From Anthoceros angustus (taxonomy: Eukaryota; Plantae; Anthocerotophyta): a stretch of 64,000 bases of DNA. The position numbers and the translations under genes were made by a program. The notes beneath the pieces were generated by a model. The model was not told the DNA's origin. It made no database searches and saw only the letters and a list, made by a program, of their open reading frames with translations. This document shows positions 5,637-29,634 of this stretch, piece after piece (position 1 is the stretch's first letter; each line of letters opens with the position of its first letter). The stretch is taken from contig MU008154.1 of assembly GCA_010909165.1 (NCBI GenBank), forward strand, positions 682,001 through 746,000, in the 5' to 3' direction.

Positions 5637-6390
5637 TGGTTGCACCTATATCTACAGCAGATTTGTTTGCTTGGTTGTTGGTCGAGGAAGTGCTTATATG
5701 AATTCAAGTGCTTACCTCGACATGATGCGCCGCAGTGTGATACTAATCTGCACTTGGGTTTAGTGTTTGATTAGCATTAATTAATCTAATTACTTATCTT
5801 TAAGTAAGTAATTAGTGTTAATTAATCTAAGTGCTTATGTTAATTAAGCATTGATTAGTGTTAATTAATCTAAGGTGCTTATGTTAATTAAGCATTGATT
5901 AGTGTTAATTAAACATGGTTAGCAATAGCTAAGTGGATAAGCTCAAGTAATATGCTTTGGCATATTCCTTGCATATTATAGTGTATTCTTAGGATACAAT
6001 AGCTAAGTGGATAAGCTCAAGTAATATGCTTTGGCATATTCCTTGCATATTATAGTGTATTCTTAGGATATTTCCGCATATGCCGATGCCAATAGGATAT
6101 CTTAGAATATGCCGATGCTGTGGTCTAGTATATATAGACCCTTCCATTGAGGACAAGCTCGATCATAGCTTGTCCTCTAGATATGCAATGCAAGAGCTGT
6201 TGTGAGGAGGCCAAAGCTATGACTCAGAGATGTGTGAGGAATTTGCGTGTTGTTCGTGGGAGAGTGTGTTTGTGCACACGCAAGCTACTCCCTCCACTGT
6301 TGTTACTGGTGTGCGGGTAACTTGAATCGTATAAGCACTTCCCGACCAACCAAGCAAACAAATCTAATACTGAGATATATAGTGCAACCA
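5637..6390 (+). repeat. 3' LTR (754 bp) of the DNMT-gypsy element
   Basis: TG..CA ends, terminal inverted repeat, preceded by a PPT, internal 43-bp and ~75-bp tandem duplications, matches 1-429. Confidence 0.9.
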
Positions 6391-6843: not shown

Positions 6844-8267
6844 TTGCTCGTCCCGGCCGTTGTCGCTACTCCTATGCTTCTCCTTCCCTCGGTGGACCAG
6901 AAAACTGATCGGGATCTTTGGGTGCTGAAGTTACGAACCAGCAGGGAGTAGCGACCGCCACGTCCCAGCCAGTCGGTGAGCGGTGATACAATCGGGGCGT
7001 TCATTAAGTCCTCGGACCAAACTGAAAATTCCCACTACTTGACGACCTGCCATTTCATCGATTCATTTGGAAGTTGGAGTGGACTCACCGCCTCGAGAAA
7101 CCCAACGTTGTGGAAATCCCGCGATGGTCGCGAAGTGCAGGCCGCGCTCGGGAGGATGTCTCTCCCTCACTACCAGACACCAATTTCTCCTCCACAACCT
7201 CTTTCCTTTCGCTGTCGGTGATCTCCGCCCCTTCTTCCTCCGACCCGTCCTCTCCTTTGTGTGTCGCGGCAAGGATGTCCTCCTCTTGATCGCCGTAACT
7301 GTTTCTTCCACTGCCCAGTGCAATGTGGCAGCAATTTCTTCCCTTAGTCGATTTCTTAGCCGTAGGCTAAAATCTGCGGGTGCGGTGAGGCGACCTTCCA
7401 CGTTCTCCTCCTTGGGTCTTTCCCTTACCAGACATCTGCAAGCATCCTCATGACCTCCAACCCACATTTGTTAAGAAGGAAGCAAATCACACCCTTTAGT
7501 GTCTCAGCCGTTCACCCCTATGACAACTAGAGGACGTGAAGTTCCTTCTTCACCACATATGGTCAACCCTCAGTCCCTTCTCCAACATTCTGCAGCCTAG
7601 CGATGGAAATCACAGAACTCAAATTTTCAGCGACAAGTCCCCGGCAACGGCACAAAAATGTGGGAGGGAAAACCCCGGGGCTTCCGAGGCTTCCCCCTCT
7701 AGCGGCCACACTTATCCCACTGTCGCTTTATACGTTGGGTTTCGTACCATGAGACTCGTGTGAAAATTCGAGGTCCTGTGATAACCGATCGCCTACTCCA
7801 GACACCTTCGACCTTCTAAACAAGCAAGGCGCCTCTACTCTCCTCTTACAGCAGGCTGCACCACTTGCACTCAGAAAATCACCAATCCTGACCCACAACG
7901 ACAACACACTGCGGTGTCCCGCTTTTCTTAGCAAATGAGGAGTCACACGGCGCGCCTTGGACCCCCGGGTCCACACCGCACTTCGTCCCTACTTCTAAGA
8001 CCAATCTTCTCCACTAGGAGCGCCTTTTACTTGCATTCGGATTCGTCCCTTAGGCTCACTGCGGGCCTTCCACTAACGCTCACACTCTAATCCTCTACTC
8101 ATCTCCTCCTCTTCCTCCTATTCTAACCTCACTGGCCACTGGATCTGGCTCGCCTTACGGCACAATCACCGTGCCTCCTCCATCGCAAGTTCTTCCTGGG
8201 CCGGTTATGAGTTTGGCACCAAACAACAGGACTCCAGGAGTCTCGTCTGCGCCTTTCCTCGCCGAGA

Positions 8268-8522
8268 TGACAATTTATATGGTATATGTGGATCAATTAA
8301 ACACTTAGAATAATTACATTGTATATTGTATCAACAAGAAGTTAATGCCTAATGAACGAAAAGACAACTTAATTTAATAAACCAAAAGGTATGACTATTC
8401 AGCTAATGGACGTAACCCTAGCGAACAGGTATTAACTTAAATAACCTCATGTTCACACTAAGTATATAAAAGGTAGCTAAAACCCTAAACCCTTATCATG
8501 ATTCAGCATATATATCTCATCA
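8268..8522 (-). repeat. copia-1 3' LTR
   Basis: TG..CA; near-identical to 15287-15541. Confidence 0.97.
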
Positions 8523-8805
8523 CTCCCACTTGGTGATCATGGTAAGGACAGCATCGTCCCCTCTTGACCCCTCGTCTTCCAGCAGGTTCCTTGTGAGACT
8601 GTGGCTTGAGCTGGGTGTCCTACGAGTTGTTGCGCCTTGTGCGATCCATTACGCCCGGTTCCTGCCAATTCTGAACAGGATGGCTTGTACCAGTGTGAAG
8701 CCGCTAGCCATGAGGTGCGCGCCCTTTATAATCTACCTCTACATTCTCACTCTTATGGCAATTGAGCATCTGAAGCTCAAAATTTCTCTGCTTACGCTCA
8801 CCGCA

Positions 8806-9587
8806 ATGTCTTCCTCCTCACCTTCTGATGATGCTCCGAAGCGCACTCGCTCCTGCTAACGATTAGGCGATTTGCTTCACCACATGGGGCAGTGCCTCAA
8901 TTACACCTCGAGTCGCGCACCGCCGGAGAGGTGCCAGAAGGCACGAGGGACGCCTGTAGTGGAAGAGGGAGGTCCGCATCAAGCAAGCGAGGGCATGTGT
9001 TCTCACGCAGCATCAGCCGCCGAGATGGGCGGACCATCTCGGGCCACACCAGTAGAGGAGAATTACTTCTCCAAAACTGCATGCGCTGCTCGCCGCTTCG
9101 AGGCAGGGGAGTACGCCTACTCTGACGATGAAACTCGTCCTGCCACTCCATGGAGGTTTCCACGAGTCTATGATTACACTGAGGAGACCAAAATCGTCAG
9201 CCTTGGGAACTTCAACAATCCTGGGACACCTCTGTGGTACAAGTGCATGTATACCAGGCTTGTGATGAAACGTATCAGGGTTTCCATGTGCAGGGAGTTC
9301 CCTGGTCACGTCGTCAGCCTTTATCTTGAGTACCAAGCTTTATGTGTTTTCTATTTGCCTGCAAATCCACTTCACAAGCATGTTTCCCTAACAGTCAGGT
9401 TACTCCCACTTGCTCTCAAACTCTGTTGCTGTGTGTAGGTTCTGAACAGCGGATCCAGGAGGAAGAAGGACTTGAAACTCTCGAGCTGCATTGTGGAGGC
9501 GGAAGAAACGTAAGACCCCGGATCAGAGAGAGCTTTTCCACCTCGTTGAAGCCGCATGGCAGAATCCTCCGACTCAAGGATAATTGA
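8806..9587 (+). CDS. Antisense accessory ORF of copia-1 (disrupted, possibly spliced)
   Basis: Starts MSSSS. The domain ETKIVSLGNFNNPGTPLWYKCMYTRLVMKRIRVSMCREFPGHVVSLY is homologous to the antisense ORF of copia-2. Confidence 0.65.
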
Positions 9588-9659
9588 TGATCATGGAGAG
9601 GAGTTTGAGGAGGCAAGTTTCAACTGGGACCCCGACTACTAGGTGTAGCAGATAGGCTG

Positions 9660-12600
9660 TTAGGGACTGCTGAGGAAGTCATGCGACCCCCCCATCCCCA
9701 GACTTTTGACATGACGTTCATGTAGGTCTCTGCCAAGTGCCTTCGTTAAAATATCTGCTGGGTTTTCTTGTGTCGGAACATACTCGAGGTTAATCTTGCC
9801 CTCCTTGATGAGGTCACGTATATTGTGATATTCAACCTCGACGTGCTTGGTCCTCGAATGAAAAACCGGATTTTTAGCTAACGCCATTGATCCTTGATTG
9901 TCAGGCTTGATTGTGGTACATGTAGGTAGGTCTATGCCCATCTCGCTGAAAAGAAGCTTGCACCATGTGACCTCCTTAGCAGCAGCAGTCAGCACTTTGT
10001 ATTCTGCTTCCGTGCTAGATAGAGCTACTGTTGGTTGCTTTTTAGATGACCAGCAAATTGGGCCACCTGCCACACTGACAACATAACCTGAAACAGATTT
10101 TCTGGTGTCTATGTCTCCAGCATAGTCAGAGTCGGTATAAACATCAAGGTCTAAGTTCTGTCCAGGTGTAAACTGGTATTTGATGCCCCTGTGAGGTGTT
10201 CCCTTAAGGTGCCTGAACACACGCTTTACGCATGTCCAGTGTTCTTGTCCCGGGTTCTCCACGAATTGTGAAAGAACTCTTGTAGAGTAAGCAACTTCCA
10301 GCCTTGTAGTGTTAGCAGCATAAATGAGTTTGCCAACACCCTGCCTGTAGGGAATAAGGGCCATCTTCTGTTTTTCTGCATCTGTCTGTGGTGACATCTG
10401 CTTGCTTAGCTTCAGACCACTAGGTAGGGGTGTTGCAGCAGGTTTAGCATCCTTCAGCCCTAAGTGTTCTGCACTGTCGAGAAGGTATCGTGGCTGTGTG
10501 AGTGTAATAACCCGCTTTGTCCTGTTGCGCTGTATGTGAATACCAAGGCAACTCTCAAGTGCACCAAGGTTCGACATCTTAAACTTCGTGGCCAGCACGT
10601 TTGTTATTTGGGTGATAAACTTCGAGTTGTTGCTGGACAGTATCAAGTCATCAACATACACTGCCAGGTAACACACTACATCACCTTTCCTGTAAATGTA
10701 CAGACTGCCATCTGCCTTGCTTTTGACGAAGCCTAAGGCTAACAACTCCTCATCTAGAACTTCATTCCACGCCATAGCAGACTGCTTCAGCCCATATAAC
10801 GTTTTGATGAGTTTTAGGACATGATCTTCTTTCCCCTTAACCTCATAGCCTGGAGGCTGTTGCATATAAATTTCTGTGTCAAGCTTGCCGTTGAGGAAAG
10901 CCGTCTTCACGTCGAACATTTGCAGTTCATAGTCTTTGTACGCTGATACTGCACATAATGCTCGCAGGGTTGCTATCTTCACCACAGGGTCGAAAGTCTC
11001 AAGATAGTCCAGCCCTGGTACTTGGGAAAACCCTCGAGCTACCAGGCGGGCCTTATATCTGTCGAACGTGCCATCAGCCTTCACTTTCAGCTTAAACACC
11101 CACTTGCAAGAAACCATTTTGCATCCTGGAGGTAACTTTGCTAGCTCCCATGTTCCATTTTCGATTAAGGAATCATATTCGGACTATTTAGCCTTCTTCC
11201 ACTCTGCACTATCAGGCCTGCTCAATGCCTCTTCATAGGACTGTGGCTCTATGGGATCGAGAGCAATTGCAGCATGTGCCCTAGCAGAACGAAAGTCTGG
11301 AGCTTGATAATAGTCAGGAGCTCGTCTTTCTCGAGTGGGATAACGTGGTTCTTGTGATGGGGCTATTGCAGGTTCAGGCTGGGTTTTAACATGATCATCC
11401 TCATGTGCTTCAGCTTGATCATCCTCAACCTCAGAGACAGCATCTGGAGCTTTGGGCTCTGGAGGATGGTGGTCCTGCAAATTATCTGGCTGATCTGGCA
11501 AAGTTTCGCCGGTCAGGCATAGCAGGTTGTGGATGTTCATCATCATATTCTTTTCCGACTGAGAAGTTGTTCCCTCCTGCAGGAGCGGCATCCTGGAGAG
11601 CGGGAGCCTGAGTGCCATGGTCAGTGAGATCAAAGTGAGACACATCGGCCAGAGGATCATCATCATCTGCAGAGGTTGAAAGGTCTGGAGCATTCTGAAC
11701 TCCTCCCACTGACGCCCAAGTGCGTGTCTCGTCAAATGTAACACTTCGAGCATAGATGACCTTGTTGGAGGGTACATCATATAGCTTGTAAGCTTTTATC
11801 CCCTCCGTGTAACCTAGCATCAACAACTTGCGAGCCTTGTTCTGAAACTTCTTTCGTTTCTCTTTAGGAATGAAGGCGTACGCAAGACATCCGAAAGTCC
11901 TCAAGTGAAGTATTGAAGGCTTCCGTCCTGTAAAGGCTTCATAGGGTGTCATCCCAACAACTGAATTTGTGGGCAGCCTGTTGCGAAGGTAGGTTGCGGT
12001 CATGAGAGCTCCAAGATGTAAGGAAAACTGAGCTGCAGAAGTAAAGAGGAGATTGCCTCCTAAATGATTCATGTGCCTCTGCGACTCCATCTCAGGAGTG
12101 TAGACAACTGTGAGTTGTCGTCCTATGCCTTCAGCTAGGCAGTAGTCATGGAATTCCTTAGAGGTAAATTCACCCCCATTGTCAGACCGAAGTGTCTTCA
12201 AAGACTTCCCTGTCCATCTCTCAACATATTTGATATACTGTTTGAAGTAGTTAAAGCATTGGCTTTTGTTCTGCAGGATATAGGTGGTGACAAATCTGGT
12301 CTTGTCATCGGTGAACGTCAGAAAGTATCGTCCACCACCTATGGATGCTTGTGAGAGAGGGCCACACAGGTCAGTATGTACGAGCTCAAGAATGTCTGCA
12401 GCTCGGTGAGGGGCCTTATTTCCTGGCGGCCAGCCGCTTTTGACAACACACACACGCTCACAACAGGTAGGCGCTCAAAGGGCCTATCTGTCCATCTTGA
12501 CATGTATCACTGCATACTAACTCGCAGCTTGGCTGTATGAGGGTGACCTAGGCGTGCATGCCCCAACTTAGCTTTTTGATCTGCGTGCAGGCTTGGGAGA

Positions 12601-14015
12601 CGCCTGCAAGATGGGACTGCCATCTCCACTGTATGTAGACCTAAATGCATCATGGTCTGATGACCCATAGGCAAGTATCTTCCTATGATCATAAGCGTCT
12701 ATCACCTGGCATTCTGTCCTAGTGAACAAAACATGACTGTTATTATCAGCATTCAGCCTTCTAACTGATATGAGATTTCTTGTCATGTCTGGCACGTAAT
12801 ACACATCCTGCAATGTGAGGGTGACTCCAGATGGAACTGACAAGTCTATCGTGCCACGACCAGGAGATACTAGGGATCTATCATCACCTAGGTACACATA
12901 CTGATCCTTAACTGGTCTGTATGTCTTGTATGCATTTCTGTCAAAACAGATATGCGCAATAGCGCCTGTATCTAGATACCACTTAACAAATGGTCTAACA
13001 TCAACCTTGGATGACAGGCATGTAGGGAGCAAGAGTGGACTAGCAAACTCCCTTGTCCCAACGGTAAGGGCAGATGGAGTGTTTTGCTTTTTGACCACCA
13101 CGTGACCTTCAAAGATCGGACCCTCCTTGAGGAACCCGTGATTGCTTCTTGCGACACCACGCTCCCAAAGGACTGAGAATTTTGGCACCAATGGCAAGTA
13201 CCTGACTTTTTACTCTTCTTGTTAGAGTTGGTGGCAGCAGAGTTGCTTGAGCCTGCAGCAGGAGCTCCTTGCGAGCCTCCTCTGTTGGAACGAGAAGAAC
13301 TTGCTCCTCCTCGTCCTTGTGACTGGTATCTCCCACTTCCTCTCCCACGTCCAGATGTGTACAAAGCCTGCTGTTTGCCTGAACGTTTCTGGTTGCCCTT
13401 AGAGGCTTCTTCTTCCAGCAAAACTCCAACAAACTCAGCAAAGCTTGTTTCTAGCAGTGTCACTTTAGCAGCTTGTGCTAACTTAGTCACTAGCGAGGGA
13501 CCTGTGTGTGAATAAAATTCGACTGTGACTCCGCAATGTAGAGCATCGAACATGGACAGCTGTTTGTCCTTCATGGTTTCCCCTGAGGCTTCTTCTAACC
13601 TAGAGGCAAGTGTTCTGAATACTCCTATGTGTTTTTCAATGGAATCTCCATCCTTCATCTTCAAGTTATGGAGACTGCGCATTGCTGCCATGACAGAGGC
13701 GTCATTTCTTCCAGAAAACAGGTCTCGCAAACGTGTCCAAATCTCCTCAGCAGTCTTGGCCCCTCCAGTCTGTCTCAACATCTCAGATGTTAGCCCAGAC
13801 CGGATCAGGAACATAGCAGCATCATTTTTGACCTGCCACGCCTCAGCTTCGGATCCTTCAGACAAAGGTTTGGTCTCGATGCCCGTAGCAACTTTCCACA
13901 ACCTTCTGTTTTGCAAAGCACCTTGCATCCGGATGACCCAGATGTCATAATCAGTCCCGTTGAATCTGTCCTCTTTCCGGAACCCATCTCCAGCAATACT
14001 GGCTGTTTCTGACAT
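9660..14015 (-). CDS. copia-1 gag-pol polyprotein (several frameshifts, one stop)
   Basis: gag FNGTDYDIW; protease WYLDTGAIAHIC; HARLGHP; integrase LELVHTDLCGP..LRSDNGGEF; RT KARLVARGFSQ..YVDD; RNaseH YTDSDYAGD..SSTEAEY..ADILTKAL. Confidence 0.95.
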
Positions 14016-14198
14016 GTTGAAAATATTGTCAAACTTCGTTGTGTTGTCAGGTTCGGGTCCCGATTCAAATCGTGGATGTGATTCGGTATCGATCGTGATC
14101 GTGAACAGGTCAAGGATCGTATTGCCTTCGTGTTCTTCCTTCCTACGCGAGGCATAGGGCATGCTCACATGCAACAAAGGGAACTAAATGATGTCTAA

Positions 14199-14735
14199 TC
14201 ACAGAATGTGAGCAGGGTAAGCATTTCCTGCCATTCCTAATTCTGCCAATTGCAGCGTGTCTTGCTGTGCTAGACGTCTTTCTATTTTATTGTTTCTAGA
14301 CTCCCATCTATTAAAGGAGTATGTAGCACAAGAGGGACAGGAGTTAGGTGTATCAAACCTATGTCTCCTACTTGTATTGACAACCTTCCTGCATGCAACT
14401 CCTCGTGAGATGGGGTTAGCAAGCAGCTGTGGCTTCAACAGGGTCAGAAGCTTAAAATCCAAGTGAGAAATCTGCTCTTTCAAATCTTGTAAGTCAACGT
14501 TAGCAGCTATCACCTTTCTGCCTATTGATTTGCAGTTCCTGTCGATATGCTGCTCATGTGACTCAAGTCTGGTCACAAGTTGTGTGACTCCTGTGTGTGG
14601 TGTGACCTGCGTTGTTAGGAAAGCTCTGGGCTGGCCGTTACCGTCAAACGCACGTTGCACACGTACTTCAGGCAGATTCAAAGGATTTCTGGCTGTAGGA
14701 GCAAATCCCAAGTGCCTCTCTTCAGGATACAGCAC
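14199..14735 (-). CDS. Extra sense ORF (178 aa) in the copia-1 5' leader, unknown function
   Basis: Open frame between PBS and gag, with a heptad-like stretch (LQDLKEQISHL) and CPSC; no recognised homology. Confidence 0.4.
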   Translation of the reverse strand: MLYPEERHLGFAPTARNPLNLPEVRVQRAFDGNGQPRAFLTTQVTPHTGVTQLVTRLESHEQHIDRNCKSIGRKVIAANVDLQDLKEQISHLDFKLLTLLKPQLLANPISRGVACRKVVNTSRRHRFDTPNSCPSCATYSFNRWESRNNKIERRLAQQDTLQLAELGMAGNAYPAHIL

Positions 14736-15286
14736 TTCAAGGATTGAATCAAAAGCTTCATGCGATTACATTGCATGAAAAGTGGCGAGCGATTCACGTC
14801 CACCCGATAGCTCTAAAGAGTTGTTCAAGTGTTAGGGATCACATGCTTGCCCCGCGCGATTCTGCCTTTGTGGAATCCTCAGGCGCGCCTGTTGGCCTTG
14901 ATTATGTGCCATCTACAATGGCCTGAACTCTAGTTGCCAGAATGCTTTCTAAATGCATTCTGAATTTGTTTTGTGTAAATTACTTTAATTTCTTCATGCA
15001 ATTTGCCAAATCTGGCAGTTGTCCTAGTGTGCCTTTGCCAGAATTGCTCAAAGTAGCAGTCTGATACAAGACGCACTAGGATGCACTCCTAGATCTGCAA
15101 ACTTGTATGATTCTTTTAAAGAAAACAACTCAAAGTTCAGTTCTTGATTTTTATTTGCTTTTCTTGCTTAAAACCTATTTTCTAAACAAGAAATAGCCAA
15201 AGATACATGTTTGTGCATATCTCTCCATGCACAATTTAATGTGCATTCTCTAGAATGCAATCCACATAGTCATAGCTCTGATACCA

Positions 15287-15541
15287 TGACAATTTATATG
15301 GTATATGTGGATCAATTAAACACTTAGAATAATTACATTGTATATTGTATCAACAAGAAGTTAATGCCTAATGAACGAAAAGACAACTTAATTTAATAAA
15401 CCAAAAGGTATGACTATTCAGCTAACGGACGTAACCCTAGCGAACAGGTATTAACTTAAATAACCTCATGTTCACACTAAGTATATAAAAGGAAGCTAAA
15501 ACCCTAAACCCTTATCATGATTCAACATATATATCTCATCA
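15287..15541 (-). repeat. copia-1 5' LTR
   Basis: Directly followed on minus by the PBS. Confidence 0.97.
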
Positions 15542-16179
15542 AGTTCCCTGGGCATTGCCACACACCCAAAGCAAAGCAACTTCACAGCAACCATTCACAA
15601 GGGGAGCAACTCGTTAGGCACTGAGGAGCAGCAGTCCTCCACCAAGCACCGACCACGCGACTTCCTCTCTCTACGACTGCGTTGGCTCAAGACGGAGTTC
15701 CTTTACAAGAGCAAAGGGCTCACGAGTATGGAAGCGCAAGACATGATACTTTACTTTGTGAAATCCTCCTTAGCAACTTCACCTAAGAGCATCCTTAAAG
15801 GATGTCAGTCTATCTCACCTATCCTTCCTATTCTCTCCTAGTTCATTAATGGCCTTTGACCATACCTAGTCCTAATCCTGCTGAGGTAGGGACGTCCTGT
15901 GGATTGGCTCTCTCGCCCTCCTTTTGCTCCTGTCCCCTCCCCAAATTATGTCTTCTTCCTAGCTTGTGGGGCAAGTACTATGTTGCCCCTCCCTCCTGCT
16001 CCGCGGGGCGGCGTCCTGATCCCTCTCATCATCCAGCAATCGCGCCCCCGCCACGCCCTCAGGCGTCCTTGCTTCTACCTTCCGCGATCTGGCAGTGCTC
16101 CTTCCATCAACACCCTACCGCGGTAGTCTGGTAGACTACCGGGGTAGTCTGACCCTCATTCTTTCCTTTCTTCCTCCCA

Positions 16180-19100
16180 TGTGATGCTTTTGATCACCGG
16201 AAGGTCTCAGCTTATGGATCATCTAATTAAGATCTTTTCCGTCTTCACACAAATATTGGTGTTGCCCAAACCCACTTGGCTTCACAGGCTCCAGACGCCT
16301 CTGCAAAACAGATTGACAAAGCCAAGTTATGGCATGCCCGTTTAGGTCATCCCCATAGTGCTAAGCTGCAGAAGCTAGCTACTAGTGATGTTTATTATGA
16401 TGGCAAGATAGGCACTCTGCCACCCTTACCTTTGTGTGAAGCGTGTGTGTTTTCCAAGCGGCACCAGGCAGCTTTCAAGAACAAGACTCCACATCGAGCT
16501 TCAGAATTTCTTGAATTGGTTCACACTGATATATGTGGGCCTCTCTCACAGCCTTCCCTTGGTGGCGGTCGATATTTCCTTACGTTCACTGACGACAAAA
16601 CACGTTTTGTTATAGCCTACGTCCTGAAGGCTAAGAGTGAATGCTTCTTTCTTTTCAAAGACTATTTGAAGTATGTAGAGAGATGGATTGGAAAACAATT
16701 AAAGACCCTTCGATCTGACAATGGTGGTGAATACACATCTAATGAGTTTCAAGCCTATTGTGCAAATGAAGGGATAGGCAGACAACTTACCGTTGTTTAC
16801 ACGCCACAACAGAATGGTGTAGTCGAACGCTTGAATCTCACCCTTCAAGAGATGATTTCATCTTTGCTACATCAAGCTTCTCTGCCTCTTCCTTATTGGG
16901 CTAAGGCTCTTATGACAGCTGTTTACCTTACAAACAGGTTGCCTACTACTGCTGTAGACGGACAGACACCTTTTGAAGCTTTCTTTGGCATAAAACCTTC
17001 TCTCCAACATCTTCGCACATTTGGATGCATTGCTTATGCTTTTATTCCCAAGGAGAAGCGGAAGAAGCTATCTGCAAAGGCACAAAGACTTCTCATGATC
17101 GGTTATACTGAAGGGATCAAGGCATATAAACTCTATGATGCCTCCCGTGATAAGGTGGTCTACTCACGTAGTGTTACTTTTGACGAAGGGCGCTTTTGGA
17201 CAACAGTGGGAGCTGCTCCCACCTATGAGGAGGATGATTACCTTTCTGCCCTCCCTGATGTCACTATCTTTGATGATTCTACTCTCGAGTCGATTGCTCC
17301 TGCAGGGGGGGAAGAGCAGCAAAATGATGAGCAGGCAGTAGAGATAGAAACTGTTGATTTTGCTGATCAGCAGCAGCAACCTCCAATTGACATTCGGCCA
17401 TATCCACCTGATCCAGCTGATGATGATGCTGATGATCCGACGACTGGCGCATCTCCGGCGTGATTTTGATGATGTTCAAGACTCGAACAAGCTCCAAAAC
17501 GTCGTTATCCTACAAGGGAACGACGTGCTCCAGATTATTATCAAGCTCCAGAATTTAGAGCAACTTCTTCCCATGTTCACGTACATTCTGCCCTGGATCC
17601 CATAGAGCCACAAACTTTCCAGGAAGCCTTGAGCAGACCTGATCACAAAGAGTGGGAGAAGGTAATAAAATCAGAGTATGACTCATTGATTGAGAATGGC
17701 ACATGGGAGATAGCCAAACTGCCACCAGGCAGAAAAATGTCTCGTGCAAATGGGTGTTTAAGCTAAAAGTCAAGGTTGATGGTACCTTTGATAGGTATAA
17801 GGCCCGGCTTGTTGCGAGAGGTTTCTCTCAAGTTCCAGGACTTGACTATTTTGAGACTTTCGCTCCAGTTGTAAAGCTAGCAACCCTGCGCACCATATGT
17901 GCCATATCAACTTACAAAGATTATGAGCTGCAGATGTTTGATGTCAAAACTGCATTTCTTAATGGAAAGCTTGATACTGAAATCTATATGCAGCAACCTC
18001 CTGGTTATGAGGTAAAGGGCAAAGAAGAATATGCTTGCAAACTAATTAAATGCCTGTACAGACTGAAATAGTCAGCTATGAAGTGGAATGAAGAGCTGGA
18101 CAGAGAACTACTAGCTCTAGGATTCACTAAAAGCAATGCTGATGTGTAAACTATCTGGATTTCGAAACTCCCTGTTGGATTGTGTCTTTGAGTGATTTTT
18201 TGTTTTTTTCTGCTAAGTTTGGTGTCAAAACGAGCTAGGTTGTCAGTAGGAAGGGATATTTATACTAGAAAGTGTCCTTGACCTATGAGTTTTTGGGTTG
18301 TTTCGGGTTGAATAATAATCGGTCCTTAGACTATGAACTCGATACTCCTTGGCCTTTGGTCTAATATCAATATCTAATAGAAAGTCTATATATGTGGGAG
18401 GGGGTCCCCATATTTGGCGTAGGTCCAGGCTAGAGGTCGAACCAACCGAAGTTGAACTGGTGTGTGGTCGCCGATCGTGGGACTATGTTTCAAGACGGTT
18501 GGCGAACCGGGCGGTCGTGGAAGGAAGGAGCGGTCGCGAAGAAGAAGTGGTAGCGGTTTGCCATCGTAGAGTTTCCGGGAAATATAACCCTAAGGGAACT
18601 CGAAGGCAGGGGCGGGCCGGGTAGCTCCAGACGATCCCCGACTGTGGCACGAGCTCGCACGAGGTCAGAAGGGCAGCGTGGCGGGAGCTCGCGATTCTCG
18701 GAAGGAAGAAACCCCGGGGATTGACCAAGTTGGAGATTCCGAGGCAGTTATCAGCAATCGAGGCGTGGGCGTGAGGGTTTTGCAGAGCATGGCGCCCAAG
18801 GTTGCAGCAGAATTAACGCCTAATGGCCAAATATGGACCATTGGAGGGTCCGAGGTGGAGGATTGGTGAGGGAGCTGGGACTTGGGATCATGGAAAACAA
18901 AGGAGAGTTTATGGGAGGATTTTCCAGATAAACGAGGAAGGAGGACCCAAAAGAAGAAAGGACGAAGGGCCAACCAAATCGGAGGGGAGTGCGGAGATAA
19001 CATGGGAGTAGTGGCATCCTAGGAATAGAACTTTGGATAGGATGCCATCTTGGACCTAAGGCCCGAAATTGTAGGGCGCCTTCGCTCAGCTTTTAGGACG

Positions 19101-21129
19101 AAAGTGGCTATGACTCAAAGAATTGTATAAAGGGGCTTGGTGCCCCTCACATCGAGCAACTCTGGTTGAGATCCCCACGCCGCCTGTGGCTGTGGAGACG
19201 TCCGATTGACAGAGGTGGTGTGCGCGAGACGCCCTAGGGGTGGTAGAGCTTGCTGCAACCGGGGAGGAGGGGTGATAGAGCAATCTTGGCCGACAAAGGA
19301 GGAGGAAACCAAGGGATTGGGGGGCGGTCCGGAGCTTGCTCGTAACGCCCGCCAGGACGCCTGGGGTTCTTCTTTCCTTCACCCTTGTTCCCGTAGTTGT
19401 GTTCAAATTGAGAGAGAAGTGTTGAGTGGATGGTTGGAAGCTGGGCGAATTGAGGGAGAGAGAGAGAGAGAAGATTGGGTGAAGGAGTGATTGAACATCA
19501 GATGGCGAGGTGTAAGAGGAGTTGAGAAGGGAATTAATTGAGAGACTAGGAGATTTGTGTGGATCCAAAATAATCCAAACCGTGTGGAAGTGTGCACAAG
19601 AGGAAACAGATTCCTTGTGGAATTGTGTGAGGGTGGCGCCTTTGTGTGTGTGGAGAACGGTTGAGAGGATTGGTCTAGGAATTGTGTGTGCATGAAGTGT
19701 GGAGTGCCAAATAAAGTCCGATCAGTGAGCACGGTAGCGTGCGGGGATCGCGCTGGCGCCGAGATGAGTTGCTAGGGTTTGGTGGGACCCACCTCGTAGT
19801 CAAGCCACCGGTAGTGGAATGAGTGGAATAGATTTGTCGTGGAATAGATTTTGGTCGTGGAATGAGACCGGGTGGAATGAGATTGGTAGTTGGACAAGTC
19901 GGGAGGTAGTAGTAGTTGAGTAGATAGGTAAGAGGAGTGTAAGTCCCGACTTAGGCAAAGGTCGAGTGATAGAAGTTAGCGCCTCGGCACAAACCATTCC
20001 CTTGGGAGCGAATCCTAGGCCTACAACGACATTGAGGGTGAATGTGGACCTCACGGTGTCCCTAGACACAAATTCACACTCCACATGATGGCAGCTTATA
20101 CATATACAGAAATGGAGACATCGTGTGTTACTTAGCTGTTTACGTCGATGATCTCATTCTCTCAGCAATAGCCAGGCTTACATTGACAAGATAACAGATC
20201 TCCTGGCCAAAAGGTTCAAAATGTCAAATCTAGGCCCACTTCAGAGTTGCCTTGGCATCCATATTCAAAGGAATCGACTTACCAAGGTCATAACTTTGAC
20301 ACAACCTAGATATTTGCTGGACAGTGCTGAACAGTTTGGCCTCAAGGACGCCAAAGTTGCAGCCACACCTCTTCCTAGTGGCTTGAAGCTCAGCAAGAGC
20401 ATGTCACATGTCACACAGGCCGACAAAGATCAGATGGTTAACGTCCCATATAGACAAGGAGTTGGAAAACTCATATATGCTACGAACACAACCAGACCTG
20501 AGGTAGCCTATGCTACTAGTATCTTGTCCCAATACTTGGAAAATCCTGGACAGGAACATTGGAGCTGTGTTAAACGAGTATTCAGGTACCTAAAAGGGAT
20601 TGCACACAAAGGTATAAAGTACTCTTACCAATTAGGAGCACCTCTGGACTTGGAAGTTTACACAGACTCTGACTATGCCGGAGATATGGATATGTTTCAG
20701 GCTATGTGGTTGGTGTTGTAGGAGGACCCATATCTGGTCCGGCAAGAAACAGCCAACAATGGCTCTGTCCAGCACCGAGGCAGAATATTGATGTTGATAG
20801 CAGCAGCCAAAGAAGTAGTTTGGTGTAAGCTGTTGTTCTCAGAGCTAGGGATTGACCTTCCAACCTGCACAATAATAAACACTGACAACCAAGGATCGAT
20901 GGCCCTTGCTAAAAATCCCGTCTTCCATTCAAGGACTAAGCATGTGGAAGTAGACTATCATTACATCCGGGAGTTAGTAGTAGCAGGGACAATCAGACTT
21001 CAATATGTTCCAACACAGGACAATCCAGCAGATGTCCTAACAAAAGCACTTGGACGTGAACTACATGAGAAGCATGTGAAAGGTTTAGGACTAGGAGAAT
21101 CAAGTACTTTCCTAGCTAATCCCACCTAA
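16180..21129 (+). pseudogene. copia-2 pol (integrase, RT, RNaseH) with stops, frameshifts and a solo-LTR insertion
   Basis: LWHARLGHP..CEAC; VHTDICGP; SDNGGEY; KARLVARGF; YVDD at ~20141; YTDSDYAGD; ADVLTKAL. Confidence 0.95.
18145..20085. mobile_element. Solo LTR (1941 bp), probably gypsy
   Basis: TG..CA ends flanked by a perfect 5-bp TSD tgatg (18140-18144, 20086-20090); removing it restores RT SNADGSLY. Confidence 0.9.
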
Positions 21130-21205
21130 TCCCTTAGTGCCACTGCTGCCTTAGCCCCAGCTAGGATTCTGATTGTCTGTCTCCGAAGAAGGCTCCTCTC
21201 GAGTG

Positions 21206-21985
21206 TCATTCGAATCGTAGTCTGTCAAGGTGTGAAATGGAATCGGAGTAGCCTGAGGACATGTAGTCCTCAGGGGGAACTTTTCTCTCCACCAACTTGC
21301 TCAGAGACATCTGGACATGCGAATGATAATGTTCGACAAAGTGGGAGCTAATTGGCAAACAATGGAGAATGGTCAGTGGGCTTACGATAATAGCTAATGA
21401 CATGGTAAAGGAACTCTCCGCAATTGCATACTTGGGTTCTCTTCATGACTTACCAGTTTTGCGGCAGCGATACCATAGGGGGGAGTTTGGACAGGCAATC
21501 GACCCCAACGTCACAATTGTGGTGTCTCCGATGAGGCTCCCGTGAGGGAACTTCACTGACAGGTCAGGTTTCTTCTCTCCTTTCTCATACATGGCAACGG
21601 GACCAGAAAAGGAATAATCTGGCAATGGCTGGGGGACAAAAGACACATGATTAGTATATGCAGCAGCGCTCGGCCTGGAAGAAAAACCCATGTTTGATGC
21701 GAGCGCCCGAGCAGCCGCAGAGAGCGAAAGAGACGCCGCCTCCACCTTCCTTCCAAGAGCAGCAGCAGCCGTAGATGATGCCTCCACTTTCCTTGCAACT
21801 AACACAGCCCTTGTTGTGCCCCGAGGGCGGCCACGACCTCTCTTAATTGGTGTTGAGCTTGATGGCGCCTCAATCTTTCTTGCAGACAAGGCAGTTGTCC
21901 TAGAAATCTTCTTTCCGACAGAGCGGCCCTTGCTATCTCTCAGGTAACGGCGAGCGGCCCTCACCTCCTTAGAGGAAGAAGACAT
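21206..21985 (-). CDS. Antisense accessory ORF of copia-2: AT-hook plus a Cys/Trp-containing domain
   Basis: MSSSSKEV...PIKRGRGRPRG (AT-hook, ~21820-21843)...DTTIVTLGSIACPNSPLWYRCRKTG[fs]VMKRTQVCNCGEFLYHVISYY. Confidence 0.75.
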
Positions 21986-22249
21986 GTTGATCAGCTTACA
22001 TTCAAGCAGCTCTCTAACAAGGATGCTGAGTGTAAAAAGGGTGAACAACGTTATCACGCACCTGGTCTTTAATGGCTTTTGGGCTGCGTGGTCCATTAAG
22101 TGCCGAGCGTAAGAGTTTTAGGGCATAACGCAGGTAGAAACGAGGCACTCACAGCTGAGAGTTGGCATTGGCATCTGAGCTGGAGCGAAGGACTGGAGCT
22201 AGTAGTCAGACTGTGAAATAAATCTCCCGAAATGATCAACAAGTGGGAG

Positions 22250-22510
22250 TGAAGAAGTATAGTGTGTTGAGCATTTACGTGAATCAGGTTGCAATAATCA
22301 ACATACGTAATCATAAGGGTAGCTGAAAATAAATGTTAGTAAGTACTTGTTCATTAGGGTTGTGTCTCATGGCGAACCGTCATGTCGTTTTAAGTTCTAG
22401 TTTAAGTAATGTCTTTTCATAATAAGCATTTAAGCCTTTTTCTTGATATACAATGATATATGTAATTACTAAATGAGTAATTGATCTACACTTATTCCTC
22501 TAATTTGTTA
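22250..22510 (+). repeat. copia-2 3' LTR
   Basis: Begins TG right after the PPT; ends aatttgtta versus aattgtca in copia-1. Confidence 0.85.
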
Positions 22511-23125
22511 GATGCTTTCTTCGCGAAGTCCTTAATGAACCTCCTATAGTATCCTACCAAACCTATGAAAGCACACACCTGCTTCATGAATTGCCGCAAG
22601 AAATGTCGAAATATGGTATTCACCACTTGTTGAAAAGTAGCTGGGGCGTTGCACAACGCCAAAGGCAGCTTTGAGTAAGCATAAGTGCCCCAATCTGTCG
22701 TGAATGTGGTCTTGTCCTAATCCTCCTTCCTTAGCGAAATTTGATTGTAGCCTGAGTAACCATCGAGAAAGCTATACATCTCATGTCCAACACACTTTCC
22801 ATGAAAGGCAAGGGGTGGTGGTCCTTCTTCGTCACTTTGTTGAGGTTCCTGAAGTCTTGACACAGCCATACCTCTCCTTGCTACTTTTTGGGTACAATTA
22901 CGATCGGGGCTACCCACTCACTGGTAAGCAGAGGGTAGATCACTTTGGCCTCCAAGTACTGGCCTAGCTAGTTCTTGACCACCATAGAATACTTGGGTTT
23001 ATCCTATACTTTGATTCATCGGGATATTGCCTTCTTTCAAATCGATTCGATGTATCCCCAATTCTTCCAGGATTCCTGTCATGTCAGTAATCTTGAAGGC
23101 AAACACATCGACATATTCAAATAGG
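22511..23125 (-). pseudogene. Gypsy reverse transcriptase fragment (duplicated at ~33207-33745)
   Basis: FEYVDVFAF..HRIDLKEG; EWVAPIVIVPKK; YSFLDGYSGYNQI; LCNAPATFQ; GYYRRFIKDFAK. Confidence 0.9.
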
Positions 23126-23214
23126 GACTTAGTAATTAAAGGATGATTCGATAAATAGGTAAATAGGTAAGTAATAGATAGGTAACTTGGGGGCCGGGGA
23201 GGGGGTAAGGTTTT

Positions 23215-23576
23215 GAGATTAAGTCCAATAGAAATCTCGGGGTATGGGGTGAGCTCGGGTAGTGATCGAGCTTATCATGGACCCTCGTTGAGGTGGTAGA
23301 AATAAAACCCAAGTTGGTGTACGCCTATCTACAATTAGAAGCTGTCGTAAAGGAGGATTCGGGAGATGAGGCGAATAGGAAGGTAGCCTCGGAAAGGGAA
23401 AGCCTATGATCGGGATTTTTCCGATGAAGGATGTGGAATAGTGTAAGTAGCGTGTGGAGGAACTTACGATCCGTATGCTATAGAGGATTTAGAGCTGGAA
23501 CCCTGCAAGGTAGTCAAGATTGCTAGGTACTTAGGAGCAATAGAGAAGGAGGAATTCCATAAACTGCTTCTATTTA
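23215..23576 (+). pseudogene. Gypsy protease-RT linker, inverted relative to the adjacent RT (duplicated at 33833-34219)
   Basis: VVKIARYLGAIEKEEFHKLLLF continues naturally into FEYVDVFAF on the opposite strand. Confidence 0.65.
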
Positions 23577-24859
23577 TCTAGCTCATTGGAGTCGGGCGTA
23601 TATAGCTGATTTATCTATTTTCTCGAGGATTTTTCCCTTTCTTTGGTTGTACCCCGTGGGGTAGGCTGATACCTACAATGGTAGGTAGGATGCCTACGGT
23701 GGTAGGCTAGCAGTCTATCATGGTAGGTCCTCACCCTACGGTGGTAGGTGTTGGCTTATAGTGGTAGGTTGCTTACCTACCACAGTAGGCAAACTGCCTA
23801 CCAGCCACCTATGATACCTATTCCCGGTGCTGAAAGGCTGTCTCTACCCATTTTCCTTTCCCAGAATTCCCTTTTCCTTCTCCTTGCGCTATTCTACAAC
23901 TCCAGCTTCAAAAAGGACCAAAAAGTTCCAACATGATTCTTCAATGCCATTCCTAACTGAAAAAAAGTTGGACCTGTTCAAAAATGAACTAACTTGAACC
24001 AGTGGGGAGGGGATTTTATACAAATATATAAAATCCCCTACGATGTTATTGATTTATTAAATAAAATAATAAGGTATATCTATTGTGTACTACCAAAGTG
24101 ACGAGCACTACATAAGGTTTCGTCTGCGGGATGAAGCGCTTCGCTGTGGAGCTTGGGTGGAAGTTTTACAAGCAAGTCTTAGCGCTTGGATGGGAGAGCT
24201 AGAAATGGTTTTGTGTGGAGTGTTGTTGTCGTAGCCAGCGGCATGGATGGCTAGCATTCCGGCTTCTACTCTGTCGTAAATAAAGAGTACCATCTCGTCT
24301 AAGGTGGCCTGCGAGTTGTCAAGGACGGCGGGCTGCTTGGACCTAACACGGTGTTGAGAGGAAGAGATCGTTATCATGCTCTACGAGTAAATTAACAAGA
24401 CCAAAGAGCATGTTGAGAAAAATAGAGCATTGCGAGGTTCCACTTGCGAGTGAAATGGCAAGACCCAAGGCATTGTGTTGAACACGATAATTTTTGAAGG
24501 GGGTTAATAATCTCGAAGGGGGTTTTCCGCAAATAATCTCTGAAGGGGGTTTTTGATGGGCCCTAAAATGCTTTTGAAGGCATTCGAAAAATTCAAAAAG
24601 GGTGTCACCCAAAAAAGTTACTACTTTCCATCTAGCAATGTTTTGGCCAATGGTGGTCGCAAACCCAACCTAGGGAAATAATGCAAAGTAGGAACGGTGG
24701 AGGAAGGCCGCTCACGCCGGCAAGAACGATCAGAACTCGCTTTTGGGATGGAAATGTGGTTTTGTTATGACACCACAAAAGCCACGTGGTATTTCCAACA
24801 CGTAAACATCAAGAACGGACTTACAACATTAACTCGGGACCCCGAAAACGAGATTTCGC

Positions 24860-25670
24860 CACTCATCCCCGTAGTTCAATCCATCGTCATCACTTGGTCC
24901 AAATTTTCTCCTCCATTGTCATCACTATCTTCAGACACTTTCACTCGCAGTTGTATGAAGCCACGCAACTCGCAGCTTATCCCTTATCGCTTTTGTCCAC
25001 CGTGACATGATGTTTCCGTATGCTCAACACAAACCCATAATAGATGACTGCTTTATCTACAAATACCTCAGTATGTTTTTAGGTAATGGATCTTATTCCC
25101 TTTTTCCTAAGATTGGACCGATGGGTTACCACCTGACTATGTGTTCTCGCACATATCTCCCTTCATACGCATCTATGTGCTCGGTCCGATACTAGTGGAT
25201 AAGAAAGTGAGGTCGTGGTGCTTAGCTTCAATGACCTCCCCAATCCGTAATGCTATGCATGTCCGTATTGCACGGCACCGCCGTAAACATCCTCTCGGAT
25301 TGCTATGTCCCCATTCATCCGTGCCATTTCCGCAGCTTGCCTTCCCGCATTTTGATATGCCCCCAAATACATATCACGCGTGGAGGTCCTCAATAATGCC
25401 TCATCTAGCAAAGCTTCATCCGCACTTGAAGTGGTCAGGTATGATCCACTGCACGTGAAAACCACTTCCAAGGACGTGTAGCACTAGCCCAATGTTATTC
25501 TCCACAACGATAGCAATCTCCTTCCGTCCAACAAAGGCTTCCCACCACTTATACTCTTCAATACCACCTATGGATGCAAATCTTTTAACCCTTCCCGCAA
25601 ATGGGCCACACCTTCCATCGGTGATAGGATACCCGCTGCCCTTCTTGTCCCCCTAGCTTCACCCAGATGC
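24860..25670 (-). pseudogene. Degenerate coding remnant, probably the C-terminal part of a Sola-like transposase (second copy ~34700-35480)
   Basis: Frameshifted pieces such as EYKWWEAF and VIYYGFVL; the assignment is by resemblance only. Confidence 0.35.
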
Positions 25671-25679
25671 ACCGTAGGA

Positions 25680-26012
25680 TGGCAGGAGGCGCCCGACCGC
25701 GCCTCCCCAAGATGCCGCGCCATGGGCCACGGCCGCCCCTAGCACACCTGCGCCCGGCCCGCCTCCCTAACACCCCATGGGCCGGCCGGCCGCCCAACAC
25801 GCCGCCTGGCGGGCGGCCGGCCTCCTAGCACACGCCACGGCCCCCAGCACCGCCCATGGCCGGGCCGGCCTCCCTAGCACACTGCCATGCGCCACGGCCG
25901 CACGCCGCCACGCCGGCGCGCCCCCACCAACACGCCATGTTTGCCCATGGCCCGGCGCCTCCCTAGCACACACTGCCTACCCATGGGCGCGGCCGGCCCT
26001 CCTCCTAGGCTG
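25680..26012. repeat. GC-rich degenerate tandem repeat (gccggccgcctccctaacac..ccatgg); second copy 35495-35840
   Basis: Repeating ~30-bp units. Confidence 0.8.
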
Positions 26013-28931
26013 TCTTCAAAAATAAATATTTAGCGCCTCAAGAGTAATTCAACCATGGATTGTTGGTCTAGTGTTTGGGAAATAAGTGTAGTAACGAATA
26101 GGTTTCGTGTTCAAACCTCGTGCCTCCTCAGTTCAATTTTGTTGATTTTAAGGATGCTTGCATGGGCGCATGGGCAACTAACTTTGTTCATTTTAAGGAC
26201 GGCATTGCCTTAAAGCCCAAGTGGTTGCATTGAGTGCCGAAGGTTGAAGACCACGATGGCGACCTTTTGGATGAGGGTCGCATGCTAGATGTCAGGTGGC
26301 GACACCGCTGGACCGGGCCCAAGAATGATACTATTGAAGACGAGCAAGCAATGGAGGAGAACGACAACTCGAGGCGGAGGATATGGACCGCCTAATATGG
26401 CGGTGGTACTTGACCCGGCCAAGGCATGGATGAGTCGCCGCACTCTTGAATGGCTATTGTCGATGACCACTTCCTCCTTCAGTTGTTTGTTGCAATGTTC
26501 TCACGACCACTTAAATGAGACTCCCGCTAGTACAAGATTGTTTTCTTGTGGTAGCGATATTATATTTATATTTGGTATTTTCTTTTGTGGTATCTTTGAA
26601 TTTCTTTCACGCTTATATTGGTCCATCTTAGTAACAAAATGGCAGCCCTCTATGCATTCTACTAAACGAACGGGCCCACACCCCATCGTGCTCAGCTCGG
26701 TGTAGACTTGAAAGTGCATCTTTATCAAAGATATGACCTCGTAAAGGGTGTGTGCATTATCAAAGTAGGGCACATATGTCGCTCTAGGTAAGGTGTTCTT
26801 CGTGACAAGGTGTCTCAAGGGGCCGCGATATCCCCCTTCAAAAATTATCGTGTTGTTGCTTCCACCTGTCACAATCATAGTGGTTGCGCAGTAGAGGGTG
26901 TCATTCATATGATGTGTCATTCATATGATATTTTGTTTCTTGAAGAAGAAGAAGAAGACTAGAAAGGTACAGAAAGAAGGCAACTATACACCTAGTTTCT
27001 ATGCAACTTTTATAATTTAACTCATTCTTGAGTGTCTCTTTGTCCTAGTTTCTTCCATACGATGTTGGTAGGATTCTACAACGCTTTTCTTGCATATTTC
27101 CACTCGCCAAAGGGTATAGCTTTACAACCATCTTGTGCAACTTCCCGCTTTTTCTCGAGAACCCAACATCGCCTCCGAATATTATTCTAGGCATCAAGAC
27201 TTTGTTTTCGCTTTCACATTGATCCGACACTGCTCACCATGAGGTTTCACAAAGCAGCCTATAAGAGGAAGCGATTGAGCATAGAATGCAGACATCGCTA
27301 GAATATTCGCCTTGAACTAGATTATGGTCACATATTTAAATTTCTATTGTGCATTTCATTCGTATAGCCTTGTGCCTCTCTTACAACAAGTGGGCGTAAG
27401 GCTTTTCATAGTAGCGGGCCCCGTAGGACTTTTTACAACAAGTGGCCCCGTAGGGCCTTTTACAATAGGCGGACCCATAGGGCTTTGGCTTGGGCCCAGC
27501 TCCAAGTGCACACCATACCACTTTCGTTCTCGCATTGCGGCGAATCAAGAAGAGCATCGTGTCAAGGAAGATATTATTGTGCCAAATGTCTAAGAAACAA
27601 AGTCTTGTAGGATTCTAGCGAGAGTATAGTCTTAGGATTGACTATGAGTGAAAGGTTGATGCGCAAACAAGTTTGCACACCAAAATCACAAAGAAGCCCT
27701 AAACACTCTAAATGTTTGTACACGCATGGATTGTGAGAATGACCTTCTTTAGGAAGGCTCAAAATTGGATAAAATTGAAAATCAATCGCTTTGTGCACAC
27801 GTAAACAAGACCTAAACTATTCAAAATGGTCTTTTAGTGCGGATTTTTAGCATGCAATTTGGGGTTTAGAAGTGGTGCAAAAGGTGGAGAAACCCCTTTC
27901 TACCCGACGCTATTACCGGTAGAAACCCATGGGAGTTAATGATATCGATCCCCGCTCCTTCTTGTCCCGGTGGTAACATTAACATCAAGGCGATGGCGCG
28001 TGCATTGAACTTGAGAATTTATGGTCTTGGTAATGACATGGTAAAGGAACTCTCCGCAATTGCATACTTGGGTTCTCTTCATGACTTACCGTTTTGCAGC
28101 GATACCATAGGGGAGTTTGACAGCAATCGACCCCAACGTCACAATGTGGTGTCTCCGATGAGCTCCCGTGAGGGAACTTCACAGGTCAGTTTCTTCTCTC
28201 CTTTCTCATACATGGGACGGAAAGGAATAATCCAATGGGTGGGGACAAAAGACACATGATTAGTATATGCGCTGGCGAAGAAAAACCCATGGAGTTAATG
28301 ATATCGATCTACTCCTTCTTGTCTGGTGGTAACACAATATCAAGGCGACGTTTCTTGCATTGAACTTGAGAATTTATGGTCTTGGTAATGACATTGTTGC
28401 ACCACTTGTGGCTGCAAAGGAGTTTCTCAATAGGCTAGAGGTCGATGTGGTCGTTGCTCGAGCCTTGGCTTGGAAAGGATGGTAGAGACCGCATGATTAT
28501 GACTTTTCACTCCATGGATGATCGCTGTTATGAAGGCTAGGTCTATGTTAGACGACTCGCTATATATCAATCGATCTTACACCATTGCAATGGAAGATTA
28601 AGAAGGAGAAGTTTGAGCTGCCTGCAAAGTCACTTTCTTTCATGGGGATGAATTTGTGGTGTTTAGCCCTCGCTCATGCATTTCATTAACATTATTGATT
28701 GATTGAAGATTATTTGTCTTGTTTGAATTTTACCTTTGCATTCGTAGACCATTTTACCGCAATCTATGTAGTTGCCATATTTCAATCCTATGACAAGATG
28801 TCCTTAGTGGACTTGAATAAATTTCTTCATCTTCTTCATCTTCTTCTTGTTGTTCTTGTTGTTGTTGTTCTTCTTCTCTTCTTCATCTTCTTCTTCTTCC
28901 TCTTTCTTCTTCTTCTTCTCTTCTTCTTCTT

Positions 28932-28963
<32 letters not shown>

Positions 28964-29634
28964 AAGTTAATTGTATTTAGAAAACTATGAAACTTCTTCA
29001 CCTCTAGGTATTGTATGTATACATGTTTAGTATAGTGATTATTTTTCACTAGCATAGTAAATAAAAATTATTTATTTAATTATTTATGTATGCTATTCTT
29101 TGCAACTTCACCCTTGTTGTGCCGGGCGCGACCTCTCTTAATTGGTGTTGAGCTTGATGCGCCTCAATCTTTTCTTGCGACAAGGCAGTTGTCCTAGTTT
29201 CTTCTTCTTTCAGCGGCCTTGCTATCTCTCGGGTAGCGGCCCTCACCTCCTTAGAGGAAGAAGACATGTTGATCACTTATTCAAGCAACTCTCTAACAAG
29301 GATCTGAGTGTAAAAGGGTGAACAACGTTATCACGCACCGTCTTTAATGGCTTTTGGGCTGCGTGGTCCATTAAGTGCCGTAAGAGTTTTAGGGCATAAC
29401 GCAGTAGAAACGAGGCACTCACGGTGAGAGTTGGCATTGGCATCGTGGGCGAAGGGGAGCTAGTAGTCGACTGTGAAATAAATCTCCAAATGATCAACAA
29501 GTGGGAGTGAAGAAGTATAGTGATTATTTTTCACTAGCATAGTAAATAAAAATTATTTATGTATGCTATTCTTTGCAACAACAAAGAAACATACAACCAT
29601 ATTACATACATATCGGCCCTTCTTGTTTCCACCT

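Follow-up and report, generated by a model that had tools for sequence, protein, structure and literature searches.

The window, i.e. the whole stretch of 64,000 nt that was analysed, is eukaryotic repeat DNA and contains two related Copia retrotransposons, Copia-1 and Copia-2. In both elements a region behind pol, on the opposite strand, opens a reading frame with MSSSS, and, judged from its sequence, this region is a real accessory gene of the Copia lineage. The initial annotation had proposed a TE-encoded antisense protein in Copia-2, and coding constraint on the core of this protein, seen in comparison with Copia-1, bears this out. An AT-hook had been singled out as well; on the present sequence evidence, the hook is not part of the conserved function. 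There are only two independent copies of the antisense gene, and both are broken.

Two related Copia elements

Copia-1 (8268..15541, minus strand) has the complete layout LTR-PBS(Met)-leader-gag-pol-antisense gene-PPT-LTR, with LTRs of 255 nt that have 3 differences and a gag-pol in five pieces. The hallmarks of Ty1/Copia elements, i.e. the order GAG-PR-INT-RT-RH, an RT of the RVT_2 type, LTRs, a PBS and a PPT, were found, and they are complete in Copia-1 alone. No 5-bp target-site duplication was found around Copia-1 (8262-8267 and 15542-15547); near-identical LTRs without a duplication suggest recombination or an assembly join. Within the LTRs (8460-8500 and 15480-15520), TATATAAAA is followed by AAAACCCTAAACCCT, which we take to be telo-box-like. 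The arrangement faces into the antisense gene, is a candidate antisense promoter, and is not evident in the Copia-2 LTR. The leader of 1.1 kb between PBS and gag contains a 188-codon stop-to-stop sense frame (14199-14765, minus strand) with a coiled-coil-like stretch and the pattern C-x14-C-x2-C. This frame had no significant match in Pfam or PHROG, and, ahead of gag, the Copia lineage may thus have one more accessory gene.

The broken pol of Copia-2 (16231..21129, plus strand; Pfam matches rve, SH3_retrovirus, and RVT_2) extends from the start of integrase at 16231 through RT to the end of RNase H at 21129. It is followed by a 3′ region of 1.1 kb, a polypurine tract (22241..22249, plus strand) identical to the Copia-1 PPT, and a 3′ LTR (22250..22510, plus strand; 261 nt, 69% AT, TG...TA ends) that aligns with the Copia-1 LTR. 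No gag and no 5′ LTR of Copia-2 were found within the window. Its RT is split by a TG...CA insertion of 1.94 kb (18145..20085, no strand assigned) with a 5-bp duplication, TGATG. Copia-2 is dead. The insertion is solo-LTR-like, and its depth in the DNA run X1 ranges from hundreds to more than 1000, compared with about 1-12 for Copia-2 pol. Contigs from X1 (share 0.07) span the LTR and parts of pol and not 21101-22171, so that this run is uninformative on the antisense region. One contig matches the LTR to 22510 and then runs on into TGGTATC. The LTR thus appears to end in TG...TA rather than TG...CA, as X1 contigs pass from TTGTTA to the PBS-like TGGTATC; Copia-1 has TTGTCA.

Copia-1 and Copia-2 share 120 of 157 RT residues, i.e. 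they differ at about a quarter, and they also have PPT and LTR ancestry in common. The RT tree comprised 42 rows, namely the two window elements and 40 of 118 usable matches. The two elements form a clade at 100/99, which joins protein P0003 at 97/96, and the clade with P0003 is separate from the named sequences of plants, algae, and animals. Among the 120 listed of 508 passing matches (1796 candidates), the best RT matches were 41-42% identical over 157 residues.

The assembly is noisy with respect to indels. Between the near-duplicates 24752-28042 and 34579-37871 there are 233 indel events and only 82 mismatches, and between 22564-23732 and its own duplicate there are 29 indels and just 7 mismatches. 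Frame breaks are therefore expected in the antisense copies, and those in the window may be errors or real decay. Two further repeat structures were observed. Repeat units, each ~4.2 kb long and containing 35-bp tandem arrays as well as TCT microsatellites, occupy ~28000-52700, the last copy being inverted (~49800-52400). Direct repeats of ~450 nt (1-428 and 5843-6295; 90% identical) surround a GC-rich interior of 5.4 kb and are probably the ends of another LTR element.

Two partial copies of the antisense region of Copia-2 lie on the minus strand, one of the core region (28031..28291; 259 matches, 2 mismatches, 16 deletions) and one of the N-terminal region (29096..29522; 425 matches, 5 mismatches, 27 deletions, 3 insertions; two of the deletions, of 4 bases each, fall across the codons of the hook). 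They keep their original order within one unit of the neighbouring repeat, a duplication of 120 bp flanks the first of them, and both differ from their source almost only by deletions. These pieces may be an assembly artefact or a templated insertion; they are not independent of Copia-2 and were rejected as independent evidence for the antisense gene.

The antisense reading frame and its core

The Copia-2 gene lies between RNase H and the polypurine tract, opposite to gag-pol. Its ORF comprises 180 codons (21443..21985, minus strand), from the ATG at 21985, which opens MSSSSKEV..., to a stop at 21445-21443 just past a frame break (...WYRCRKTGKS). The basic N-terminus and the Ala-rich linker that had been described are both present: residues 1-66 contain 20 K/R and 3 D/E, and residues 67-110 (21656..21787, minus strand) contain 15 Ala among 44 residues. 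The span 21206-21985, which had been given for the protein, is however not a single ORF, because the frame stops at 21445-21443 and the remainder of the core is in another frame. The assumed end at 21206 coincides with the stop codon of a frame that has no significant counterpart in Copia-1. The homologous region of Copia-1 (8523..9660, plus strand) has MSSSS at 8806, a stop at 8857-8859, the core in one frame (9184-9324), and no AT-hook.

The core is read in two halves in Copia-2. In the first (21455..21526, minus strand; TxIVxLG...P..PLWYxC), 12 of 24 residues are common to Copia-1, compared with 5.6 expected (p 0.00015). In the second (21387..21449, minus strand; VMKR..V..C.EF..HV.S.Y), which is in the other frame, the value is 12 of 21, compared with 7.9 expected (p 0.011). 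The local score of the second half, 57, was not reached in any of 2000 shuffles of Copia-2 versus Copia-1. Among the 18 frame pairs of the two elements, only two, both antisense, score above 44 (106 and 57). The same residue is found at 24 of 45 core codons, compared with 13.4 expected from column shuffles (0 of 20,000), in blocks that were picked from the protein alignment, which favours the core frame in this test. The DNA of these 45 ungapped codons is 57% identical, the differences at the three codon positions number 16/15/27 (p 0.004), and 13 of the 24 shared residues are encoded by different codons. The five other frames have 7-17 shared residues and stops in each. Constraint is weaker on the core than on pol, for which the differences by codon position are 32/20/101 and the shared residues 120 of 157. 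The N-terminal halves are barely similar, with a score of 39 that was reached by 84 of 2000 shuffles, and the N-terminal part of Copia-1 is not strongly basic in the frame of the core.

The W/C/C/H core of the initial annotation stands in so far as all four residues are common to Copia-1, where the pattern is W-Y-x-C-x14-C-x5-H; in Copia-2, the second Cys (21422) and the His (21404) are off-frame. GRF, FLYWCH, and BED zinc fingers have four conserved Cys/His ligands with family-specific spacing. The candidate metal ligands shared by the two copies are only three (C-x14-C-x5-H), and a fourth is not evident. The Cys and His residues are possibly metal-binding.

The frame break (21449..21454, minus strand) lies within the core and overlaps a first GTAAGT. 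Across 21452-21449, Copia-2 is one base shorter than Copia-1. The same junction is present in the partial copy 28031-28291, which, although not independent, speaks against an isolated error; given the shared break, the antisense gene of the Copia-2 subfamily may be truly dead.

Candidate splice signals and the ends of the gene

A donor-like GTAAG had been noted after the core. One is indeed found there, at 21385, but another lies inside the core at 21453, and the word itself is weak, its frequency in the window being 0.78 per kb. The first GTAAGT (21453) was rejected as the main donor because its use would delete the second half of the core, which is conserved. From the second, a 75-nt intron is predicted (GTAAG...TCCAG; 21311..21385, minus strand), with 63% pyrimidine compared with 51% in the core. 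It fits the pattern seen past the core, where similarity falls and both copies have a pyrimidine-rich stretch that leads to an aligned AG, after which S-E-Q is read in the same phase in each. The acceptor AG of the candidate intron is aligned with that AG of Copia-1, which reads TT, not GT, at the aligned donor. A possible last exon or 3′ part (21130..21310, minus strand) shows no significant frame conservation: in nine frame pairs with Copia-1, no significant protein similarity was found, and the best score was reached by 17 of 500 shuffles.

Upstream of MSSSS, the frame is open as an extension (21986..22117, minus strand) with a Met at 22096, a hydrophobic stretch, and a donor-like AG/GTGCGT at 22061. 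The extension is similar to the same frame of Copia-1 (score 57, 0 of 500 shuffles), and the Met, the AG/GTGCG site, and a hydrophobic segment are aligned in the two copies. The extension is either a coding N-terminus or a 5′ exon plus intron.

An AT-hook-like motif in Copia-2

The AT-hook reported for Copia-2 was confirmed as KRGRGRPRG (21818..21844, minus strand), an R-G-R-P core with basic flanks that is preceded by TPI. It is identical at 8 of 9 positions to AT-hook 1 of HMGA, KRGRGRPRK, which binds AT DNA at 1.5-5.8 uM (accessible text of PMC11526092); the AT-hook consensus is given as TPKRPRGRPKK (in the parts available of PMC11354804). RGRGRPR occurs once in the 127,996 codons of the six frames of the window, and plain RGRP five times. 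In a post-hoc test with 100,000 shuffles of the ORF residues, RGRP[RK] was found in 0.16% and [RK].RGRP[RK] in 0.02% of the cases. The DNA encoding RGRPR (21822-21836) also gives RGRPR on the opposite strand, so that chance counts of the motif are doubled. Pfam AT_hook (PF02178) gave 10.1 bits (E 0.89), under the cut-off of 17.4. Single short AT-hooks often fall below the Pfam cut-off. The Copia-2 hook would likely bind AT-rich DNA.

Absence of the hook from other copies had been named beforehand as a finding that would speak against its role, and the hook is indeed missing from Copia-1, a single homologue that is broken by the stop at 8857-8859. Its three antisense frames contain neither RGRP nor GRP. 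The aligned place reads ERCQKARG, and the nearest look-alike, SGRGRSAS, is not in the frame of the core. The AT-richness ascribed to the LTRs holds, with 69-70% AT compared with 53% for the window and with 31-35 AT tracts (length 6 or more) per kb compared with 9.7 for the window. AT-rich LTRs are ordinary.

Homologue and domain searches

Protein searches, which covered near-length proteins, yielded 0 of 170 candidates for the Copia-1 antisense ORF and 0 of 931 for that of Copia-2. A core profile of three rows was used for a HMMER scan over 1.84 billion representatives. Its sole match, P0121 (E 3.2e-4), was rejected; it is a repeat protein that matches profile positions 32-57 only, in four stretches, and does not have the Cys residues of the core. 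One of 234 metagenome stretches passed and was likewise rejected, being 23 residues long, off-frame, and inside an unrelated long gene. None of 21 viral contigs matched, the ESM Atlas gave no usable match with either antisense query, and PHROGs returned 0 families for four proteins. Two PDB matches of the core were discarded, i.e. adiponectin, for which three 7.2-bit repeats were summed, and a protease inhibitor (E 0.57); PDB sequences gave no match to the hook region. The AlphaFold2 model of the core (pLDDT 40.8) was unusable for a fold search. In Pfam, no plant mobile, Transposase_28, or VANC-type match was obtained at E up to 1, and the antisense protein matched neither PF04195 (TRP28) nor PF10536 (PMD) nor any zinc finger.

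P0003, the closest RT relative, reads 241 residues beyond the RNase H motif. The core was sought on its opposite strand with a negative result, as the joint score was reached by 63 of 300 shuffles and W and both C are impossible at the best place. A search of largely open-access literature found no description of the core domain or of an AT-hook in a Copia antisense gene. The accessible parts of PMC13547354 and PMC12859917 do not contain the word "antisense", and those of PMC13547354 do not contain "AT-hook".

Possible functions of the antisense protein

Our best explanation, which we hold tentatively and at slightly less than an even chance, is that the Copia-2 stretch derives from a conserved backward gene of the Copia lineage and is now broken. 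Its product would be a small nuclear accessory factor, in which the core does a shared job and a variable basic arm contacts DNA loosely. Beyond the conserved gene itself, we infer all of this. Transcription would be driven by an antisense promoter within the 3′ LTR or next to it, by analogy with gene23 of maize Grande, and the transcript would probably be spliced past the core and perhaps also before the start. The protein would enter the nucleus, where the hook could mediate AT-rich minor-groove binding of low specificity and micromolar affinity. The core might contact a chromatin factor of the host, or else the transcript or the integration complex of the element itself, and thereby favour expression or insertion. 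The hook, which would have been gained by Copia-2 or lost by Copia-1, would be an affinity aid and not an address label.

The region may instead be a decaying passenger, i.e. a captured fragment of a host gene whose core was constrained early or is slowly decaying, with RGRP arising by drift in a basic low-complexity arm and serving no purpose for the element. Both copies are broken, the hook is present in one of two, its Pfam score is under the cut-off, and plain RGRP is found five times in six frames, all of which favours this explanation. However, the breaks are expected from the indel noise of the assembly, the same place is kept in two families with RT at 120 of 157 and a synonymous bias, and the 1.84 billion representatives contain no host homologue. 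We consider a passenger unlikely, though less so than the other alternatives.

The hydrophobic upstream stretch of both copies could be a membrane anchor. The product would then be a membrane or secretory accessory protein that starts at Met 22096 (8680 in Copia-1) with a hydrophobic signal anchor, and its cytosolic RGRP arm would bind RNA or lipid and aid particle trafficking. The aligned Met, KPL..RC, and a 19-residue stretch (hydropathy 1.97 and 1.82), which the two copies have in the same frame, are in agreement with such an anchor. Yet the hydrophobic stretch shares only 5 of 21 residues when compared without gaps (p 0.21), and the gapped test is inflated by the alignment. Moreover, the stretch opens at the donor-like AG/GTGCG in both copies and is pyrimidine-rich, so that it may be an intron that is read through. 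A membrane role appears rather improbable.

The initial annotation inferred an LTR-binding factor analogous to the VANC proteins. In its full form, the protein would bind the LTR of its own family by the AT-hook, the core would add specificity, and methylation or repression would be removed from that family. The hook is a good match, the LTRs are dense in AT tracts, and LTRs and N-terminal arms have both diverged between the families, as co-evolution predicts. Against this, Copia-1 lacks the hook though its LTR is equally AT-rich, and AT-rich LTRs are ordinary. Nor does the antisense protein have a PMD, Transposase_28, or VANC-like Pfam match, and no motif arrays were found, whereas VANC21 needs dense 9-base arrays. 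A lone hook would confer a preference for AT, not the 9-base recognition of VANC, and could thus not tell AT-rich LTRs apart. We regard a VANC-like anti-silencer as quite unlikely. The same low chance is given to the most far-reaching proposal, i.e. that the antisense gene is spliced, belongs to an undescribed Copia lineage, and encodes a new Cys/His domain with an exchangeable DNA-contact arm, and that the Copia-2 hook tethers the protein to AT-rich LTRs or insertion sites and counters silencing as an independently evolved counterpart of VANC. If the protein did lift the silencing of its own family, a counter-defence of the VANC type would have evolved independently in retrotransposons.

Antisense RNA as the main product, with self-regulation via double-stranded RNA against the 3′ end of pol, has been proposed for this gene class (in the available text of PMC7264820) and fits the direction of the antisense unit, which points into RNase H, but constraint at the level of codons, as seen in the core, requires a protein product, and we deem it very unlikely that the RNA is the main product.

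Comparison with known systems

VANC proteins are encoded by the VANDAL (MuDR) DNA transposons of Arabidopsis and are structurally related to MAIN (accessible parts of PMC5735166 and PMC13547354), and the target of VANC21 is a 9-base motif that occurs in dense arrays (PMC5735166). The Copia-2 protein resembles them in being TE-encoded, in its place beside the core transposition genes, and in the fast divergence between sister families. In contrast, the Copia gene of the window shows neither a domain match of the VANC/MAIN type nor motif arrays. No tandem motif arrays were found in the non-coding parts of Copia-1 and of Copia-2 (without its 5′ part): TRF reported 14 rows for 8000-22600, all of them two- to three-copy repeats or microsatellites, and no 8-mer occurred more than three times.

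With AT-hook 1 of HMGA, the Copia-2 motif shares, besides the 8 of 9 residues, the central RGR/GRP core and an upstream TP. It differs in that there is one hook instead of three, the final Lys is replaced by Gly, the motif is not conserved in Copia-1, and binding is predicted.

Antisense ORFs between pol and the 3′ LTR (aORF-3R or eORF-3′R) are a described class whose function is an open question (available portions of PMC7264820 and PMC11963269). Examples are gene23 of maize Grande, rice RIRE2, Silene Retand, ORF2 of bean pvRetro13, and Botrytis Boty (PMC7264820, PMC11963269, PMC4093653), and the antisense products of Grande, RIRE2, and Retand are nuclear or predicted to bind DNA (PMC7264820, PMC11963269). 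Placement, antisense orientation, and protein conservation over two families, which characterise this class, were all found for Copia-1 and Copia-2. The gene is thus like the known cases in position, orientation, retention across families, the lack of a clear database homologue, and a suspected nuclear role. Grande and RIRE2 are Gypsy elements. Retand and pvRetro13 are described as Gypsy (accessible text of PMC7264820, PMC11963269, PMC4093653). These plant elements have long 3′ regions (2.9-6.6 kb in Retand) with TRP28, PMD, or SMC-like domains, whereas the elements of the window are Copia, with a 3′ region of 1.1 kb and an unrelated Cys/His core.

The part of the REXdb survey that was available (PMC6317226, Additional file 5) lists no extra ORF for 13 of the 16 plant Copia lineages. 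SIRE has eORF-3′R in 1%, and Bianca and Ikeros have values in the first two (5′) columns only; for comparison, eORF-3′R is found in 86% of Retand, 60% of Ogre, and 47% of Athila. The survey counted ORFs of at least 250 codons (PMC6317226), so that shorter or spliced genes like that of Copia-2 would be missed. SIRE also has an extra ORF behind pol, but its env-like ORF (eORF-3′F, 74%) is in sense orientation (PMC6317226), in contrast to the antisense ORF of the window elements.

The described plant cases are thus Gypsy elements, and the surveyed plant Copia lineages are nearly without such genes; the elements of the window present a new placement and a new domain, from two broken copies in an assembly with many indels. 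They offer a testable case, with a short gene, an unclassified conserved core, a recognisable DNA-binding motif in one of the families, and a candidate target of 261 nt.
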